Source: Pocillopora damicornis (lineage: Eukaryota). Taken from it: a stretch of 64,000 bases of DNA. Within the stretch, counting starts at the first letter, position 1. Each line of letters starts with the position of its first letter. Location of the stretch: positions 186,001 through 250,000 of the forward strand of contig NW_020844115.1 of NCBI RefSeq assembly GCF_003704095.1, in the 5' to 3' direction. The position numbers were made by a program. Positions 15,001-33,000 of the stretch are shown piece after piece.

Positions 15001-18000
15001 TAAAACTTTAGTGTTGATTCAGTTTGTTTGAAATAACGGCGTCCATCATGTATCTTGATGTGGTGTGTTGATTTCGCTAAACGATATTCATGATCAAATT
15101 TTTGCATTTTGTTTTATAATAAATTTCGGATGTAACTAGTGTTCTCATTGTTGAAAGAGCGTTTTTTATCAGAGTACAAAACACGGAGCTAAAGCTGTCA
15201 CGCCATCTTCCAATTTGTACAATTTCCGACCATTGCCCGGATTCCTCTCTGTTTTTTTTTTCGTTAATTGAACCACAAGTCTGACATGACTTGTAAAAGC
15301 AATATGAGAGCAAGCTCTTGGCCTCAACGGATACAGAAAAACCTGTAGGTAACAGAACAAATTTCATGGAGATAGGAAGTGAAATTTTGGAACAAGCTGA
15401 CCAGCAATTAGCAAGAGAAGATAGGTTTTAAACATGCGAAATTACAACGTGAGCAGAGACAATAATCACCAAAATGGATAAAATGGACTGTCCGAGTTTT
15501 GAAGGAAGTAATGCAAGATAATTAAACGGATTCTTTATAAAAAAAAAACAAATGAAGAAGTCTTGACTGTGCTCTGTTCTGTTGTAAGACTTTTAAAGCA
15601 AAAAGGAGGCAGCTAGAGCACTCAAAAAGTTGGGAGAAAAACTGTATTGCGTCTCGTGTTTTCCCCTACACTTCTTTCGTGCTCTAGCTGCTTCCTGTGT
15701 ACTTTACAACAAAACAGAGCACATATAGAAAAAAAAATTACTTCATGCTAAGTTTGCTTGTACCACATTATTCACTCGTTGCAAAGAAGAAAACACACTC
15801 GCTCGTTCCTCCCTCGTTCGTTTTTTCTTCACAAATCGTGGGTATAAATCATCGACGCGAACTAACCATTAAGTAATTTATAAATGGCTAAGCCCCACCG
15901 ACGCCAGCAAATTTAGTTTTCATTTCAGAGCCATAATTCGTACCGCGTTTAAGTATTCGGAAAGAACTTTATGCTTTTTTATTTATTTCTTTTTTTTTTT
16001 GTTTTTTTTCTTTCATTTCAATAATTCTTGCTTAAAGAGTCTCTCTCCATTCATTTTATCACAGTTCTCAGCTATGTCAAAGTAATAGGTCTTTTTAGCT
16101 ATGTGGTCACGTGGTTTGAAACGAGTAAGCAAAAGAATGCAAAATGACTGTTAGGTATATAACGCAGGTGACACCTTATGGACGAAATTCCTTCCTCTCT
16201 TTTTAATAAAAAATTCATATTCACAGAAAGATCAGCAGCACTCAAAAGACTGCGGTTATATAGAAATCGGCGATAACCGAAATGGAATCATTAACTAAGA
16301 TCATAAACAACCTCGAGTTGGATAAACAAACTTGTGAGCACATGATCTTTAAAGATCGCAAAAATACACGAAACGGGCACAAAAGGGAAGCAATTGTATC
16401 ACACCAAGAAATTTTTGACGATTTTGTGATTTCAAGTCAGAATGAAGTTATATTTTGTCGAAAACTATACAGTTTTTTTGTTTTGCGCTAATTAGTTCGC
16501 TCTTGATCGGCAGCCGGTCAAGATTCTCAAACGACTGAATAATCGGCAATCGGATATTTTTTTGAAAATTTAACAAATTTATAGAAGCTACACCATCCAA
16601 AGAATTACATGTTAATGAAGAACCGATAAGCAATCTCGAAGTAATTTTATCTCATGTCTTCAATCTCGAGCCCAGGGTCATTTTGGCTCCTTGTCAGCGG
16701 TATTGTCGCCAAATAATGTCCTCTGGGATAATCAAATTTTTATCCCAGAAATCGCAGGATTCCGGTTTTAACTGCGCATGTCTACACTGTTCAGTTTTTG
16801 CTTCCGGTTGACTTCTGTGCGTGCTCAAAATAGAGCACACGGTCCGCTACGCCAGCGGAAGAAGAAAAGAACGTAAATTACCTTTGTGCACGTGAACTAA
16901 CATTAACAGCTGAAAACTGTTTGAAACACTATTTCATTTTGAAATAGCTTTTTACGGACCATAAAAACATGAATAGGTGCCATCCGCTTTCAATCTCCGA
17001 GTTCGTTTTTCTGCAAACTTGAAATCCTCGTCTTCGAAATGTTCAGACCACACTTTGCTACCAAATATTACACTTAGGTCTTTATTTGATCTTATTTCAT
17101 TCTAAAAGTCGATATCTGTTTTAAAATACATTAAAAAACCATAACGACATTCAAAAATCAAGATTAGACGAAATTTTGTTTTTAACCATTTACTAATGCT
17201 ATTTACTGTGTTTCTATTGTTCCGGTCAGACTCCTTCATGGAAACAACCTACAACTTATTCCTTATCGAGCCTTCTTTGCCATGGATGCCTTGAGGATAA
17301 TGTAGGTACACTCTAATACACACACTTTTCGAATGATTTATTGTAAGAGACTGGTGCAATCGACTTTGTGTAATTTTTTTTTATTCCTTCGATTTTATGC
17401 CTTGACGCTTCTTTAGACGAAGCACATAGACAGGATCTGAGAATACAAGCTACATTCAATTGTAAATAGCCGGCCGTTGTGGCTCACTCACCTCTGATAA
17501 TTGCACACAACTTACCACTTTGGCCAATTCCCAATATTTTTCACACTATTTTTATTAATTGGCGCATGAACAACTTAATCAACCGGTTTTTGTTTGAATA
17601 TTTTGAAAATGTTCTATCAGGTAAGAGTGCCGTAATTTGAAGTGCACGATGATATAGCTACTATGACGGGAATGATACGACAAACACGACGATATCAACG
17701 TTGGTGAATACGAATTAACTATGCTAATAGTGAGGATGATTATTATAATGCGGATAACATTGATGATAACTTCGATGACGACGAAGATAATGATGCTGAC
17801 GATGATACTGATAACGACGATGACGACAATGATGACGTCAATAACGATGACATTTTATCTTTCTATCTTTTACTTACAGAACACTAACTGATAACCCAAT
17901 AGAGACAATTGAGTCGGAGGCATTCAAGTTTTATGGACCTAGTATCACAAATTTGTAAGGGATCTTATCTATTTACTCACCGAGTAAAACCTTGACACCT

Positions 18001-30000: not shown

Positions 30001-33000
30001 TACATTAAATAAGGCATTCGTTATGCTGCGTCCTATCCTGGAGAGCGATATAAGTATCGTAACCATAACGTCACTTGCTATTTAACGTTTATCAATTTTT
30101 CGCAAAATTTTATTGATAGTCTACCGCCTATAATGTCTATAAAGTAGAACCTTACGGAATTTTAAATCTACACTCTTTAAACTTTCATAAAGAAATCACA
30201 TAGAAATATTCTTATATGTAATTATCCAGATTTTAGCTTTGAAGGGTTCAGGTTTGCATTGCTATTAGATGGCTTACTCATTAGTTATTACTTTTTACTC
30301 ATTATCAGTGAGCGCACTGATATAAATTGGAGAAACGTGCTACATTTCAAATTGAAGGGGCAAATACATTAAAAATAGATGAAAAGAAATAATAGCAAGG
30401 CTTCTCTTGATTATTTCCTTCGACGGAAAATGTTTGCTTTATCCAAAAAAAAATTAAACAAATAACAATTTTGAATTTTATCTCTGCCTCAGGTCAGTAC
30501 GTGATGTTTTTGTACGAATATTTAAAAGAGTGGCGCAAAAACCCACAATGCTCCTCTTCATGCTGTCTGGCTTTGCTCCTTCCTCTGAACGACTTGCAAG
30601 GAGAAATTCGAGGTATGGTTGGCAAAAACTTGATGAAAACTCAGCTTGACACAGGTATGTTGGCGAAACCGTCCATTGCTGCCACTGCAAAGGACAGTGG
30701 AGCTATGAGCTTTACTCTTTGTGGTGAAGACGTCGAACCCGAAAAGGAAGACAAACGAAAAGATGAAGTTGTCAAAGACAGCAACAGAAAACGTCATCGC
30801 TGGACACAGACAGAAGTTGTAATGCCACCTTTTGCTTCAACCGTGGAATCTGGATCAATGAGAGGGCAGCAGCGAATAAACAGGTGAGTGTAATAAGTAC
30901 TTTCAGTATTTTTATCAAAGATACAGAAAACCTTGTGTGTAGCATTTAAACAACCTTTTGCGAATATAATGAGCCATCGTCCGGTTGAGTGTAGTCCTGA
31001 GAAGGACTCTTGTCGGTAGTGGTGACTGACGTTTCGACAATCTTAGCGGAAGTCATCTTCAGTCAAGTGAATAGTTGTTGTCAATCGAATGTTCTTAGTC
31101 CGGTAAGTATAAAGTATCAATCAGTATAAATCAGTATATATATAAAATCTGGTACCAATCAGTATAAACTGATTGGTCAGTTTTGCCGTGATGTTATTGG
31201 CTGTAAGACTCAAGTGGACTATTAAATTATCAGAACGCTGAAGTTTGTGATGGAAAAATAACCGTACCTTCTATCTCTTTTCTATGTTCCGTTGATAGGT
31301 AAATATGCTCTTTTTCTTCCATACCAAAATCCAGACTTTCCATTCTCAGCACATTATATTACATATTTAATCACTTGGCTGTGACTTTCTCCGTTTTGTG
31401 ATAATTATTGTCGATTTTCTTTGTCTTATAGCCTTAGCTTTTCTTACTGTCATCTCAAAGTCAGGTTTTGTAACCCTTTGGTTATTTTAAATTATTTTTT
31501 AGTTCTGTTTCTTAAAATGGTGGAAAAAGGAGTGAAAATACATGACCAAATCGCATTTGTAAAGGAATAGATTGATTTGACACAATGCCCATTTCGCCAG
31601 AGCTACTTACCTGGCTTGAAGCCAAGAGTCCATGTGCGGGCGAGAAAGCAGAATTTAAAATTTTTCCTGCATTGCAATTACGCAAATGATATCTAGTAGT
31701 GACAAACTCGTCAACGTGTTTCTTTTAATGTTGTCTTTTTGCAAGCAGTATGAAACAGAATGACTGAGTAAAACCTATGCTAAAATTCCAGGAGGATTCA
31801 GCTCCTCCAAAAATTGTACTATCGATACCTTTTTTTTCTAGACTTCAGCCTTTAATGCATGAGATGCATACCTCTGGAGAAAACTGTGATGCATCAGAAA
31901 TACTGAAGACATTCATAAAGAATGAAGCAGAGGGTAATGCACCAGAGAAGCAGAAGGAAGGCTTAAAGATTGTACCTAAGGGCAATATACCACCAAAGCA
32001 AAATGAAGGCATGAAGATTGAAGCAGAGTGGAATGCACAAGCAAAGCAGAAGGAAGGCATGAAGATTTTAGTAGAGTGCGACGCACCAACAAGGCAGAAG
32101 GAACGCGTGGAAATTGTATCAGAGTGCAATGCATCGGCAAAGCAGAAAGCACTCATGAAGAGAGAAGTAGAGAGTACTGTATTGGCAAATCAAGCGGAAG
32201 ACATGAAAATTGTACCAGAGTGCAATGCACCAACAAAGCAGAGGAAAGGCGTGAAGATTATGGAAGAGGGTAATAGAGTGGCAAAGCTGAAGGCATTGAT
32301 AAAAAGTGAAGCAGAAGGTAATGCACCGGCAAATCAAAAAGAAGACATGAAGATTGTAGCAGAGTGCAAGCCACCAGCAAAGCAAAAGGAAGATATGGAG
32401 ATTGGAGCAGTTTGCAATGCACCAGCAAAGCAGGAGGAAGGCATGAAGAATGAGACAGGGGGCAATGCACCAGCAAAGCAGAAGGAAGGCATTAAGATTG
32501 TGGCAGAGGATAATGCATTAGCAAAGCAGAAGGAAGGCATGAAGAATGAAGCAGAGGGCAATACACGGGCAAACCAAAAGGAAAGCATGAAGATTGTAGC
32601 GAAGGGTAATACAGTCGCAAGGCAGAAGGCATTCATGAAAAATGAAACAGAGAGCAATCCACCTGAAAAGCCGAAGACATAACTGAAATTAAAACCCGAG
32701 GCCATAAACTTTAATCAATCAGTGGAATGTTTGCTATCGCATAACGTGCTAAACCATACATTTAAAAACAAGTGTAGCGAAATTATTGTATCCCTCATTC
32801 AGATAGGTTTTAGTTAATGTAGAAGAGATATCTTTTATAGAAGGGGCTTTGTTTATAGACAAAAGAATCCCTTAGACTATGTATTTGTATCAAGCATAAG
32901 TGCCGTGATATATTTCAGTATCTAAATTCCATTTCTTTACTTTTATCGCCTTTAAAATCCTATACTCGATATCGTTAGCTTGTGTACTATTGTGAAGCTA

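Follow-up and report, generated by a model that had tools for sequence, protein, structure and literature searches.

One of the closest described systems to the coral locus analysed here is that of the alveolate cysteine repeat modular proteins (CRMPs), which, according to passages of two reports, have nine transmembrane helices and an N-terminus outside the cell and are required for contact-triggered rhoptry discharge (PMC9670195; PMC9815656). In these passages the authors, in 2023, knew of no solved structure for CRMP homologues (PMC9815656; PMC9670195), and in one of them apicomplexan CRMPs are described as predicted to be GPCR-like by PANTHER, with MAR or Kringle domains missing from some members (PMC9670195). 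Another example comes from fungi, where an excerpted account describes the passage of Ca2+ through S. pombe Pkd2 upon membrane stretch (PMC9727806), and where Flc1, a carrier of PF06011, is stated in part of a further paper to influence Ca2+ homeostasis (PMC9600462).

The stretch of Pocillopora damicornis DNA analysed here (64,000 nt of contig NW_020844115.1, hereafter the window) covers an intact stony-coral gene over its 3' two thirds, the 5' end being beyond the window. In this gene an LRR array, a short linker, a cysteine stalk of disulfide-rich modules (Ephrin_rec_like, TNFR-like and DUF7630), a nine-helix domain and a cytoplasmic tail follow one another in that order. A sequence-only reading had described an unusual receptor at 17230-30883 that joins LRRs, cysteine repeats and a multi-pass membrane domain, and this architecture is upheld by the exon map and the splice phases. 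It abounds in these genomes, with very many genes of the kind in corals, jellyfish, sponges and echinoderms, and is unusual only in being unstudied; our literature search found no published description of a gene type with LRRs and nine helices. We consider it probable that the product is a modular surface receptor built of LRR array, cysteine stalk, nine-helix core and tail.

Exon map and integrity of the gene

The gene product was read and scanned exon by exon, with the exons from 17230 to 30883 (Table 1) mapped as a collinear series by tblastn with named coral relatives, the nearest of which is from Stylophora pistillata. Exon order is collinear with Stylophora models P0122 and P0121, the large exon is 85% identical to P0121, all splice junctions are canonical (AG/GT) with matching phases, and no mapped exon contains a frame break. 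The span 17230-30883 on the forward strand begins exactly at the acceptor of an LRR exon (tcag directly before A, the first base of the 72-nt exon) and ends exactly at the donor of the tail exon (a strong AAACAG/GTGAGT directly after 30883), so that its borders are true exon borders, although as limits of the feature they fall short, since the gene probably continues: the donor at 30883 could be spliced in phase to 31842-32682, as it is in Stylophora model P0121. This candidate last exon has an acceptor with a pyrimidine tract and AG in a phase that fits the donor, aligns to the C-terminus of P0121, and carries 16-residue tail repeats (48-nt unit, 14.9 copies at 31948-32662). In P0001 and P0002, the closest of the unnamed proteins (98-99% identical), reading continues past the donor into the intron, and these two therefore derive from unspliced DNA.

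Table 1. Positions of the gene's features, counted from the first base of the window
Feature	Position	Strand	Details
Array of 12 tandem units, each with one 72-nt exon	1-8571	+	blastn of one unit
LRR exon at left edge of window	2-73	+	
Intact LRR exons, first five	618-689, 2964-3035, 3339-3410, 3751-3822, 4167-4238	+	
LRR exon interrupted by N run	1416-1471	+	
Decayed LRR exon	~1916-1987	+	lacks AG; frameshift
Intact LRR exons, other four	5313-5384, 6502-6573, 7653-7724, 8481-8552	+	
Divergent LRR exon, LLHGNNLQLIPYRAFFAMDALRI	17230-17301	+	72 nt; phase of array exons; aligns with Stylophora P0122 residues 716-744
Final LRR-like exon, TLTDNPIETIESEAFKFYGPSITN	17880-17954	+	75 nt; tblastn of P0122, P0123, P0131, P0140, P0112, P0121
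Intron with decayed transposon-like frames on both strands	17955-23381	.	5.4 kb; ORF list
Linker and first cysteine-rich module, …CPLGTFSEGNGKCMECPP	23382-23565	+	tblastn
Second cysteine-rich module, GFYVDSRGYVAESCKKCPNGSYV…CKACPI	24428-24553	+	tblastn, 66-77% identity
Large exon: cysteine-rich modules including DUF7630-like, then nine membrane helices	25733-27280	+	1548 nt
End of helix 9 and cytoplasmic tail, motif KEWRKNPQCSSSCCLALLLPLNDLQGEIRG	30493-30883	+	tblastn
Probable last exon, K/E/Q-rich tail	31842-32682	+	stop codon 32680-32682

No LRRCT, TIR or kinase domain had been seen by eye, and no exon scanned has a Pfam match to any of these or to a 7TM domain; LRRNT caps are likewise absent from the Pfam matches of the coral exons scanned, and no cysteine cap follows the LRR-like exon at 17880-17954. 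The CPxG and CxxC repeats are present, with three CxxC in the large exon and CPLG, CPPG, CPNG and CPIG in the two exons that precede it. The first of these two (23382-23565) matches TNFR_ELAPOR1_6th (E 1.4e-5) and Ephrin_rec_like (E 0.037), and the second (24428-24553) Ephrin_rec_like (E 0.005) and TNFR_c6 (E 0.02), all four under the Pfam cut-offs. The tail exon at 30493-30883 has no match in the Pfam scan; its motif KEWRKNPQCSSSCCLALLLPLNDLQGEIRG was found by phmmer in 62 of 371 proteins, and all 60 matches listed are from stony corals.

It is quite improbable that the LRR array and the membrane exons belong to two genes or to a decaying copy, with their fusion an accident of neighbouring paralogues and exon-sized repeats. 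A gap of 8.7 kb (8552 to 17230) separates the array from the next exon, one array exon has decayed, the array exons diverge as introns do, and Stylophora model P0121, that of the nearest relative, has no LRRs. The intron at 17955-23381 holds transposon remains, among them a zinc knuckle of the gag type and a stretch that resembles an aspartic protease (reverse strand, ~19997-21047); its sole Pfam match is weak (gag-asp_proteas, E 0.016), and no relative's exon maps there by tblastn. However, the LRR exons at 17230 and 17880 directly precede the linker exon in the order of single relative models such as P0122, which joins Ig, CUB, LRR, cysteine and TM parts within one model, the mapped exons are free of frame breaks, and the residues invariant in the family are retained. 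Moreover, the CT at the end of the array exons forms the consensus Leu with the first base of 17230, and both parts occur in one protein in 31 of the 41 longer relatives (as LRR Pfam domains) and in nine of the ten taken from other phyla (eight of them named, from sponge, jellyfish, sea anemone, brittle star and sea cucumbers). The array at 1-8571 and the membrane exons are very probably one gene.

The LRR array

One LRR unit searched against the window by blastn finds 12 places with 80-99% identity, and each array exon encodes one 24-residue LRR of the LDLSSNALSSLPEGVFAKLTRLQK type. Nine of these exons are intact, with both splice sites present, in a scan for open frames of AG + 72 nt + GT. 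An LRR solenoid had been placed within 17230-30883, where two LRR exons (17230 and 17880) do lie, but the main array is upstream and outside that span. The LRR part is composed of up to 11 near-identical one-repeat exons and two divergent end repeats. Every array exon has 1 nt at its start and 2 nt (CT) at its end, and therefore any number of them could be spliced in frame.

Entropy within the repeat is highest at positions 20, 21, 23 and 24, the x positions of LxxLxL being 23, 24 and 2. As a whole, the LRR exons diverge by 0.198, as against 0.209 in the intron flanks, with a pN/pS of 0.86; because this divergence is like that of the flanks, drift rather than selection may prevail in much of the array. 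At five positions that were picked post hoc the pN/pS is 1.32, and hence this value is no test of selection.

The membrane exon and its family

The motifs KILIGFYQV (26272-26298), ADYSIKC (26728-26748) and YKPTFWYWELVEMSRK (26932-26979), picked out in the sequence-only reading, all lie in the single large exon. That reading had counted about eight to nine hydrophobic segments, and the AlphaFold2 model of the membrane part (pLDDT 88.7, pTM 0.87; an earlier model, from a shallow alignment, reached a poor pLDDT of 49.3) predicts a small disulfide module and nine long helices. The DUF7630-like module occupies residues ~88-132 of the exon (E 4e-4, 20.9 bits, cut-off 27), and its eight cysteines are all conserved, in 64-69 of 64-69 filled alignment rows. 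In the model, ADYSIKC sits in an outer beta sheet, rich in disulfides, that is inserted between helix 4 and helix 5, and the inner motif FLFENYKP…WE..E..RK precedes helix 6. The KI..GFYQ, D-Y-S..C and WE..E..RK motifs are kept in 57-70 of 69-70 rows, the conserved residues including KI..GFYQ in helix 2, four outer-loop cysteines, D334 and W408-E409..E412..R415-K416. The N-terminus is predicted to lie outside and the C-terminus inside, and with nine helices this topology would put the cysteine-rich loops and an N-glycosylation site on the outer side.

Of 8000 candidates scored against the large exon, 892 proteins reach E<=1e-3 (best 1.8e-297), and the profile of the exon matches 7585, 2018 and 299 cluster representatives at E<=1e-3, 1e-10 and 1e-30, respectively. 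Judged by its sequence, the exon is a member of a nine-helix family with Ephrin_rec_like, DUF7630 and PF06011-like parts. Among 55 relatives, DUF7630 is matched at E<=0.01 by 34 and PF06011 by nine, the latter in constant register, with Apostichopus P0214 alone exceeding the PF06011 cut-off (36.3 vs 28.5 bits, profile positions 142-411); in other sets of relatives PF06011 is found in two of five, one of 14 and two of ten. The window's own exon gives no PF06011 match at E<=1, and, with one relative above the cut-off, it is therefore a distant relative of PF06011 rather than a Pfam-defined member. In a BFVD fold search the model matches the Megaviridae protein A0A5J6VHI1, whose own structure is a prediction (E 3.6e-4, prob 1.00, TM 0.46/0.47, rmsd 8.4). 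We take the name of this protein, 'Transient receptor potential ion channel', to derive from PF06011. The weak but consistent PF06011 and DUF7630 matches, together with this viral fold match, place the membrane domain in an old and little-studied eukaryotic family. The likeness to a TRP_C-like or 'GPCR-related' family proposed in the sequence-only reading agrees with the PF06011 matches of relatives, the viral fold and the name 'cysteine repeat modular protein A-like' that NCBI gives to some Oculina paralogues.

Expansion in protists and non-bilaterian animals had also been suggested. This agrees with the sponge and cnidarian members and with look-alikes in the Atlas from Haptophyta, Ciliophora, Chlorophyta, Porifera and Cnidaria, which are leads only, but it is too narrow, since LRR-bearing members also exist in holothurians and in a brittle star. 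LRR-bearing relatives come from stony corals, Nematostella, jellyfish, a sponge and echinoderms, and other paralogues carry CUB, Ig, MAM or SRCR outer domains. Durusdinium trenchii P0363 is the only named alveolate relative, matched weakly and mainly over the cysteine module and helix 1 (E 1.3e-6 in a search among 371 sequences). In a distant environmental clade the same membrane module is followed ~55-80 residues past helix 9 by TIR (six of 12 proteins in each of two scans), with C2 or PDZ in some, and the outer domains vary (ANF_receptor, beta-helix, FG-GAP).

The membrane exon has no PDB sequence match at E<=1, and the PDB fold search returns no TRP structure among the best 50 matches listed (best E 0.08). 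In the absence of a relative among solved structures, the protein can be counted among neither the rhodopsin-type GPCRs nor the classical TRP channels. There is next to no chance that it is an LGR-type or other rhodopsin-like GPCR, in which, too, many helices would come after an LRR ectodomain; 'LGR4' is the database name of one Holothuria relative, and one of the 55 relatives has a weak 7TM_GPCR_Srw match (E 0.0012, under cut-off). Against this, the helices are nine and not seven, the large exon, the only one scanned for them, lacks both DRY and NPxxY as had been noted by eye, and the fold search ranks the first solved GPCR 30th, with TM 0.10, so that membership is refuted as far as helix count, motifs, Pfam, PDB sequence and fold can tell. 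A classical TRP or polycystin channel (six-helix Ion_trans type with a pore loop) was also rejected, as the window has no Ion_trans or PKD_channel match; one of the 55 relatives has a weak Ion_trans match under the cut-off.

It is unlikely, too, that the protein is mainly an ion channel, with a Ca2+-permeable and perhaps stretch-sensitive core like that of Flc or Pkd2 and with LRRs and stalk as a tether or gate to the matrix or a touching cell. PF06011 in the relatives and the TRP name of the viral fold match argue for this, as do acidic and basic residues invariant at the inner mouth of helix 6, the Ca2+ conductance under stretch given for reconstituted S. pombe Pkd2 in part of one report (PMC9727806), and the link of a Flc1 homologue to Ca2+ homeostasis in part of another (PMC9600462). 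However, no solved channel is structurally alike, conserved charged or polar residues within the helices are few, the TIR, PDZ and C2 domains of the distant clade suit a signalling receptor better, and the PF06011 link is weak for the window's protein itself. Moreover, according to the section concerned, PF06011 owes its 'TRP' name to human TRP proteins with which the identity is 1-2% (PMC9600462).

Proposed function and comparison with known systems

A modular receptor for contact or for a ligand is the most likely reading. In such a receptor, the LRR horseshoe would bind a ligand or the surface of another cell, and the rigid cysteine stalk would relay the change to the nine-helix core, which would then act on the cytoplasm. 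The core may conduct Ca2+ or signal via the tail; we favour conformational signalling to partners for which the tail and the conserved inner face (FLxxxY, WE..E..RK) would be docking sites, possibly by a paralogue pair as proposed for CRMPA/CRMPB. The alternative output is Ca2+ entry via the core, which fungal PF06011 proteins are reported to allow. Since paralogues are many and the LRR exons are most variable at the predicted binding face, the sequences point to recognition of diverse targets, which may be microbes, symbionts or non-self tissue. A wider and rather doubtful idea is that LRR-nine-helix proteins rank with TLRs and NLRs as a third large class of LRR receptors for recognition in animals. 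If so, the class would have been overlooked by cnidarian immune-gene surveys, would be old enough to be shared by a sponge, cnidarians and echinoderms as kin of the alveolate CRMP contact sensors, and would owe its diversity in corals to one-repeat exons that were duplicated in tandem and are perhaps variably included; once a microbe, symbiont or foreign tissue is bound, a Ca2+ path would open or regulated secretion would be triggered, the latter as in CRMP-dependent rhoptry discharge.

The coupling of an LRR sensor to a membrane module unlike that of TLR, NLR or LGR receptors is one on which the tools agree. In LGRs and class A GPCRs, as in the coral protein, a membrane domain of several helices comes after an LRR ectodomain, whereas the coral domain has another fold, with nine helices and no class A motif, sequence or structure match. 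Toll-like receptors and Hydra-type transmembrane LRR proteins are similar in their surface LRR ectodomain, lineage-specific expansion and likely role in recognition, and the distant clade of the membrane family also carries TIR; the coral protein, however, has nine helices rather than one and no TIR, and with no TIR or LRRCT match in the exons scanned it was rejected as a Toll-like receptor.

In the fungal Flc/Pkd2/TrpR proteins, PF06011 is accompanied by TRP_N, while in the coral relatives it is matched over positions ~140-410 of the core, under the cut-off in most members and absent in the coral protein itself. Both have a tail in the cytoplasm and an N-terminal domain on the outside, as far as the excerpted account goes (PMC9727806), though the fungal outer part is described, in part of a further paper, as an ML-like lipid-binding domain (PMC9600462), as opposed to LRRs and a cysteine stalk in the coral.

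The CRMPs differ in that MAR and Kringle take the place of the coral LRRs (or CUB, Ig, MAM and SRCR in paralogues), and neither domain has a Pfam match in the window's exons or the relatives scanned. The coral protein also belongs to an animal with very many paralogues, as opposed to two to four CRMPs, and nothing known in it corresponds to the part that CRMPs play in rhoptry or mucocyst discharge. A possible kinship is nevertheless suggested by the NCBI paralogue names and the shared architecture. Like the coral protein, CRMPA/CRMPB, PCRMP1-4 and Tetrahymena CRMP1/2 are described, in the passages cited at the outset, as having variable outer binding domains and then EGF-like cysteine modules immediately ahead of a nine-helix core, with an N-terminus outside and a C-terminus inside that match the topology predicted for the coral protein.

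Exon organisation and the LRR array

The window is eukaryotic in character (about 37% G+C, short exons, six N runs), and the exons of the candidate receptor gene were mapped by tblastn of named coral proteins against the window, together with direct reading of the junctions. All mapped junctions are AG/GT and the phases are compatible from exon to exon. The limits of the span are themselves splice sites: an acceptor immediately precedes 17230, and a strong donor immediately follows 30883. If left unspliced at 30883 the frame stops immediately (TGA at 30885-30887), and this donor can splice in phase to a further, probable exon, as in the Stylophora pistillata model P0121. 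Exons were analysed singly rather than as a joined protein, and the last predicted helix of the membrane domain is split by the intron at 27280.

Exons and membrane-domain motifs of the candidate receptor gene (window coordinates)
Feature	Position	Strand	Length	Content	Basis
Exon	17230-17301	+	72 nt	LRR	tblastn and junctions
Exon	17880-17954	+	75 nt	LRR	tblastn and junctions
Exon	23382-23565	+			tblastn and junctions
Exon	24428-24553	+			tblastn and junctions
Big exon	25733-27280	+	1548 nt	Cys modules and nine predicted helices	tblastn and junctions
KILIGFYQV	26272-26298	+		within big exon	
ADYSIKC	26728-26748	+		within big exon	
YKPTFWYWELVEMSRK	26932-26979	+		within big exon	
Exon	30493-30883	+		cytoplasmic tail	tblastn and junctions
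Probable exon	31842-32682	+		K/E/Q-rich repeats	as in model P0121

Inside the span there are two LRR exons only. Upstream, positions 1-8571 hold 12 tandem copies of a unit whose 72-nt exon codes for precisely one repeat of 24 residues; with the repeat interrupted by introns, a strict full-LRR pattern missed this array, and a pattern starting at Asn detected it. The copies are 80-99% identical, intron flanks included, and nine are intact with both splice sites. One of the other three lies at the window edge, another is truncated by the N run 1472-1841, and the third (about 1916-1987) is decayed, frameshifted and without an AG acceptor. Since each array exon starts with one base and ends in CT, any number can be spliced in frame, and array exons could, to judge from their sequence, be gained, lost or skipped with the frame kept. 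Exon 17230 opens with the base that completes this Leu codon, begun by the CT of the array exons.

In known LRR proteins, the x positions of LxxLxL form the ligand-binding face. In this array, positions 23, 24 and 2 of the repeat are such positions, and when ten copies were compared positions 20, 21, 23 and 24 were the most variable; most of the variation in the array falls on the predicted binding face. Divergence of the LRR exons is close to that of their intron flanks (0.198 vs 0.209). The pN/pS ratio, which is descriptive as the pairs are not independent, is 0.86 across all positions and 0.51 within the framework, and the value of 1.32 at five positions comes from a set picked post hoc from the same data and hence constitutes no test.

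A reading in which array and membrane exons belong to separate genes, or in which the locus is decaying, draws on the 8.7-kb gap between the array and exon 17230, on transposon remains, on the one dead array exon and on the lack of cDNA. Set beside these are the compatible phases of all mapped exons and the Leu codon shared across the gap, and we regard this reading as very unlikely.

The 5.4-kb intron 17955-23381 contains decayed retroelement-like frames in both orientations, with, on the minus strand, a CxxC..H..C zinc knuckle and a stretch resembling an aspartic protease and, on the plus strand, frames that look integrase-like by eye. Pfam gave no convincing match in the intron and inter-exon frames of 10862-15427 and 18096-22992, where the hits (gag-asp_proteas, E 0.016; DUF735, E 1.2e-4; Ku_N, E 0.006) all fell below cut-off. 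Within the gap, 12001-14000 differs in composition (G+C 0.453 vs about 0.36, GC skew and AT skew both negative), and overlapping open frames on both strands at 12179-13334 are without a Pfam match. Downstream lie ordinary-looking genes at 41344-44509 (+), 45589-46647 (-), 51913-55002 (-) and 57607-59795 (-), which include a C2-domain protein (E 2.4e-21), a Bmt2-type rRNA methyltransferase (E 2.6e-57) and a tandem pair of BAAT / acyl-CoA thioesterase genes, which match BAAT_C at E about 1e-58 to 1e-60 and have Bile_Hydr_Trans exons at the N-terminal end.

Fold and family of the nine-helix membrane domain

The sequence-only reading had proposed a non-rhodopsin multi-pass domain recognisable by three motifs, and these are real and all lie within the big exon. 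Three CxxC are present in this exon, and CPLG, CPPG, CPNG and CPIG occur in the two exons preceding it. The absences described in that reading were borne out: neither DRY nor NPxxY is present in the big exon, and in the exons scanned Pfam detected neither TIR, kinase or LRRCT domains nor a seven-helix receptor. Its eight to nine hydrophobic segments correspond to nine long helices in an AlphaFold2 model. A first fold, made from a shallow alignment of close paralogues, was discarded (pLDDT 49.3), and the fold made from 70 diverse sequences for big-exon residues 88-516 reached a pLDDT of 88.7 and a pTM of 0.87. This model comprises a small beta-rich cysteine module and the nine helices; a three-stranded sheet carrying ADYSIKC and conserved cysteines separates helix 4 from helix 5, and short helices carrying FLFENYKP precede helix 6. 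Conserved over the 70 rows are the eight cysteines of the first module, K-I-x-x-G-F-Y-Q of helix 2, four loop cysteines, D334, F396, L397, Y401, W408-E409-x-x-E412-x-x-R415-K416 and P453. With the LRRs outside and nine helices, the Cys-rich loops and an Asn-Ile-Ser site would lie outside and the tail inside. A complex prediction for two membrane-domain copies, in which the supplied alignment was not used, scored 0.04 vs a mark of 0.32, a value that speaks neither for nor against pairing.

Among 8000 scored candidates, 892 proteins match the big exon at E<=1e-3, and a 46-sequence profile matches 7585, 2018 and 299 cluster representatives at E<=1e-3, 1e-10 and 1e-30, respectively. A PDB sequence search with the profile gave 0 matches at E<=1, and a PDB fold search gave 0 at E<=1e-3 (best E 0.08 at TM 0.14). 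As no PDB relative was found by sequence or fold, including the confident LGR or class A GPCR match that would contradict the sequence-only reading, the domain belongs neither with the rhodopsin-type receptors nor with the classical TRP channels. Class A GPCR was rejected on a best GPCR fold of TM 0.10 and the missing receptor motifs, and TLR and classical TRP membership were considered and dropped, the former for want of a TIR or LRRCT Pfam match and the latter for want of a PDB fold relative.

A TRP_C-like family had also been suggested, and weak ties to PF06011 were found through relatives' matches, Atlas clusters and a viral fold. PF06011 is described as the 'TRP' domain of fungal Flc proteins, and S. 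pombe Pkd2 as a TRP-like protein (PMC9600462). PF06011 matches in constant register, sub-threshold but for one, occur in 9 of 55 relatives, the one that passes the cut-off being a sea-cucumber protein (36.3 vs 28.5 bits, profile positions 142-411), and further matches occur in 2/5, 1/14 and 2/10 relatives of other sets. In the Pfam scan the window's own exon did not reach PF06011, and its membrane domain is therefore called, on sequence, a distant relative and not a Pfam member. Atlas look-alike clusters with PF06011, Ephrin_rec_like or DUF7630 serve as leads only, as do their taxa (Ciliophora, Haptophyta, Chlorophyta, Porifera, Cnidaria, Nucleocytoviricota). A Megaviridae protein named 'Transient receptor potential ion channel' matches the fold at E 3.6e-4 (prob 1.00, TM 0.46/0.47), and prob 1.00 is also reached by two further proteins of Megaviridae.

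The predicted folds of these three proteins (BFVD A0A5J6VHI1, A0A5J6VLW6 and A0A5J6VI06), from Megaviridae environmental samples, match the membrane domain at prob 1.00 and TM 0.32-0.60; Nucleocytoviricota are also contained in an Atlas look-alike cluster.

By analogy with fungal PF06011 proteins (PMC9727806, PMC9600462), the core might admit Ca2+, which is the main rival to conformational signalling. This analogy stands beside the lack of any classical TRP channel relative in the PDB and the recurring TIR position described below, and Ca2+ entry is considered rather improbable.

Relatives, TIR-bearing cousins and the cytoplasmic tail

The window exon is 85% identical to P0121, and in a membrane-module tree, built by a quick method from 48 hand-chosen rows, it is sister to P0121 (SH-aLRT 99), with a second S. 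pistillata model, P0122, next (99). The window-P0121 path of 0.15 equals the Stylophora-Pocillopora path of another orthologue pair, so that the sequence probably comes from a pocilloporid outside Stylophora. All animal sequences in the tree cluster together (support 98) and divide along phylum lines (Anthozoa 97, echinoderms 99, jellyfish 100, sponge plus one unnamed sequence 100), a pattern that fits old vertical descent with expansions within each lineage. LRR domains are present in 31 of 41 longer matches and in 9 of 10 further relatives scanned. LRR-bearing members occur in corals (Stylophora, Pocillopora's relatives, Oculina, Acropora, Montipora), Nematostella, the jellyfish Sanderia and Rhopilema, the sponge Oscarella, the brittle star Amphiura and the sea cucumbers Holothuria and Apostichopus, with one more in a eukprot record that is presumably Aurelia. 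The LRR form is found in at least three animal phyla within a very large family, whose paralogues carry added CUB, Ig, MAM, SRCR or HYR domains.

Another form of the module is seen in a clade of environmental eukaryote proteins (P0159, P0316, P0317, P0323, P0328, P0330, P0336, P0340, P0342, P0343, P0344, P0345, P0348), which share the motifs KLKILIGFYQ, DxSIxC and FWWELxEMxRR; the P0159 search returned 37 relatives. In this clade, ANF_receptor, beta-helix or FG-GAP is followed by the nine-helix module and then by TIR_2, which lies about 55-80 residues past helix 9, and some members have C2 or PDZ further downstream. TIR was found in 6/12 proteins in each of two scans, at the same location each time, with most single scores below cut-off (one 28.5 vs 28). 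This recurring position is the best evidence here that the core may pass on events outside the cell to a signalling domain in the cytoplasm, and these cousins suggest that the domain reached can be a classical immune one. We know of no description of a nine-helix TIR receptor. The only named protist in the cluster look-ups is Durusdinium trenchii, a weak match.

In the window, the tail exon is without a Pfam match and carries the motif KEWRKNP..S.SCCL.LLLPLNDLQGE (region 30493-30620), which is present in 62 of 371 stored proteins, is nearly invariant in stony-coral paralogues, and is stony-coral in all 60 listed rows. In Acropora (P0150, P0151), five to six repeats of the unit LP.DDL…LK.QL.TG…SGALKKSG follow the motif, as would be fitting for a docking site. 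The probable exon that follows encodes 16-residue repeats (...NAPAKQKEGMK...; a 48-nt unit in about 15 (14.9) copies within 31914-32671, 69-70% matches), which are present and longer in P0121.

Proposed signalling mode and comparison with known systems

With the architecture, fold class, family and its spread established, the gene may be read as a modular surface receptor in which LRR binding would act through a rigid cysteine stalk on the nine-helix core. The preferred mode is a conformational signal passed to partners at the conserved inner face and the tail, with two paralogues perhaps acting as a pair. If these are recognition receptors, they would bear on coral-microbe and coral-symbiont specificity, and through the family the CRMP/Flc membrane core, itself poorly understood, would become tractable in animals.

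Literature searches returned no description of LRR-nine-helix animal receptors, to which supplementary files could add, and nothing on the architecture for DUF7630, PTHR11319, CRMP with cnidaria, or LRR with nine transmembrane; PMC6993872 and PMC10236652 contained the search words and concern a different subject. The sections of cnidarian innate immunity surveys that count TLRs, NLRs, RLRs and lectins make no mention of the architecture (PMC8260672). The proteins are already in databases, uncharacterised or misnamed, as Tolloid-like protein 2, Carboxypeptidase N subunit 2, IGFALS, LRRC15, LGR4 or, for one Nematostella member in UniProt, 'DUF7630 domain-containing protein'. As names are taken from the LRR or CUB parts, the shared membrane core is hidden and domain-based surveys would be misled.

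We rate the gene as an unexceptional representative of an animal form, coupled to LRRs, of the CRMP/Flc-type membrane family. Several Oculina paralogues are named 'cysteine repeat modular protein A-like' by NCBI, and the likeness to CRMPs is drawn from these names and from described architecture, by description and not by sequence. CRMPs are reported to have variable outer domains, EGF-like cysteine modules, nine helices and an outer N-terminus, with two membrane domains predicted to pair and similarly predicted homologues in Dictyostelium (PMC9670195, PMC9815656).
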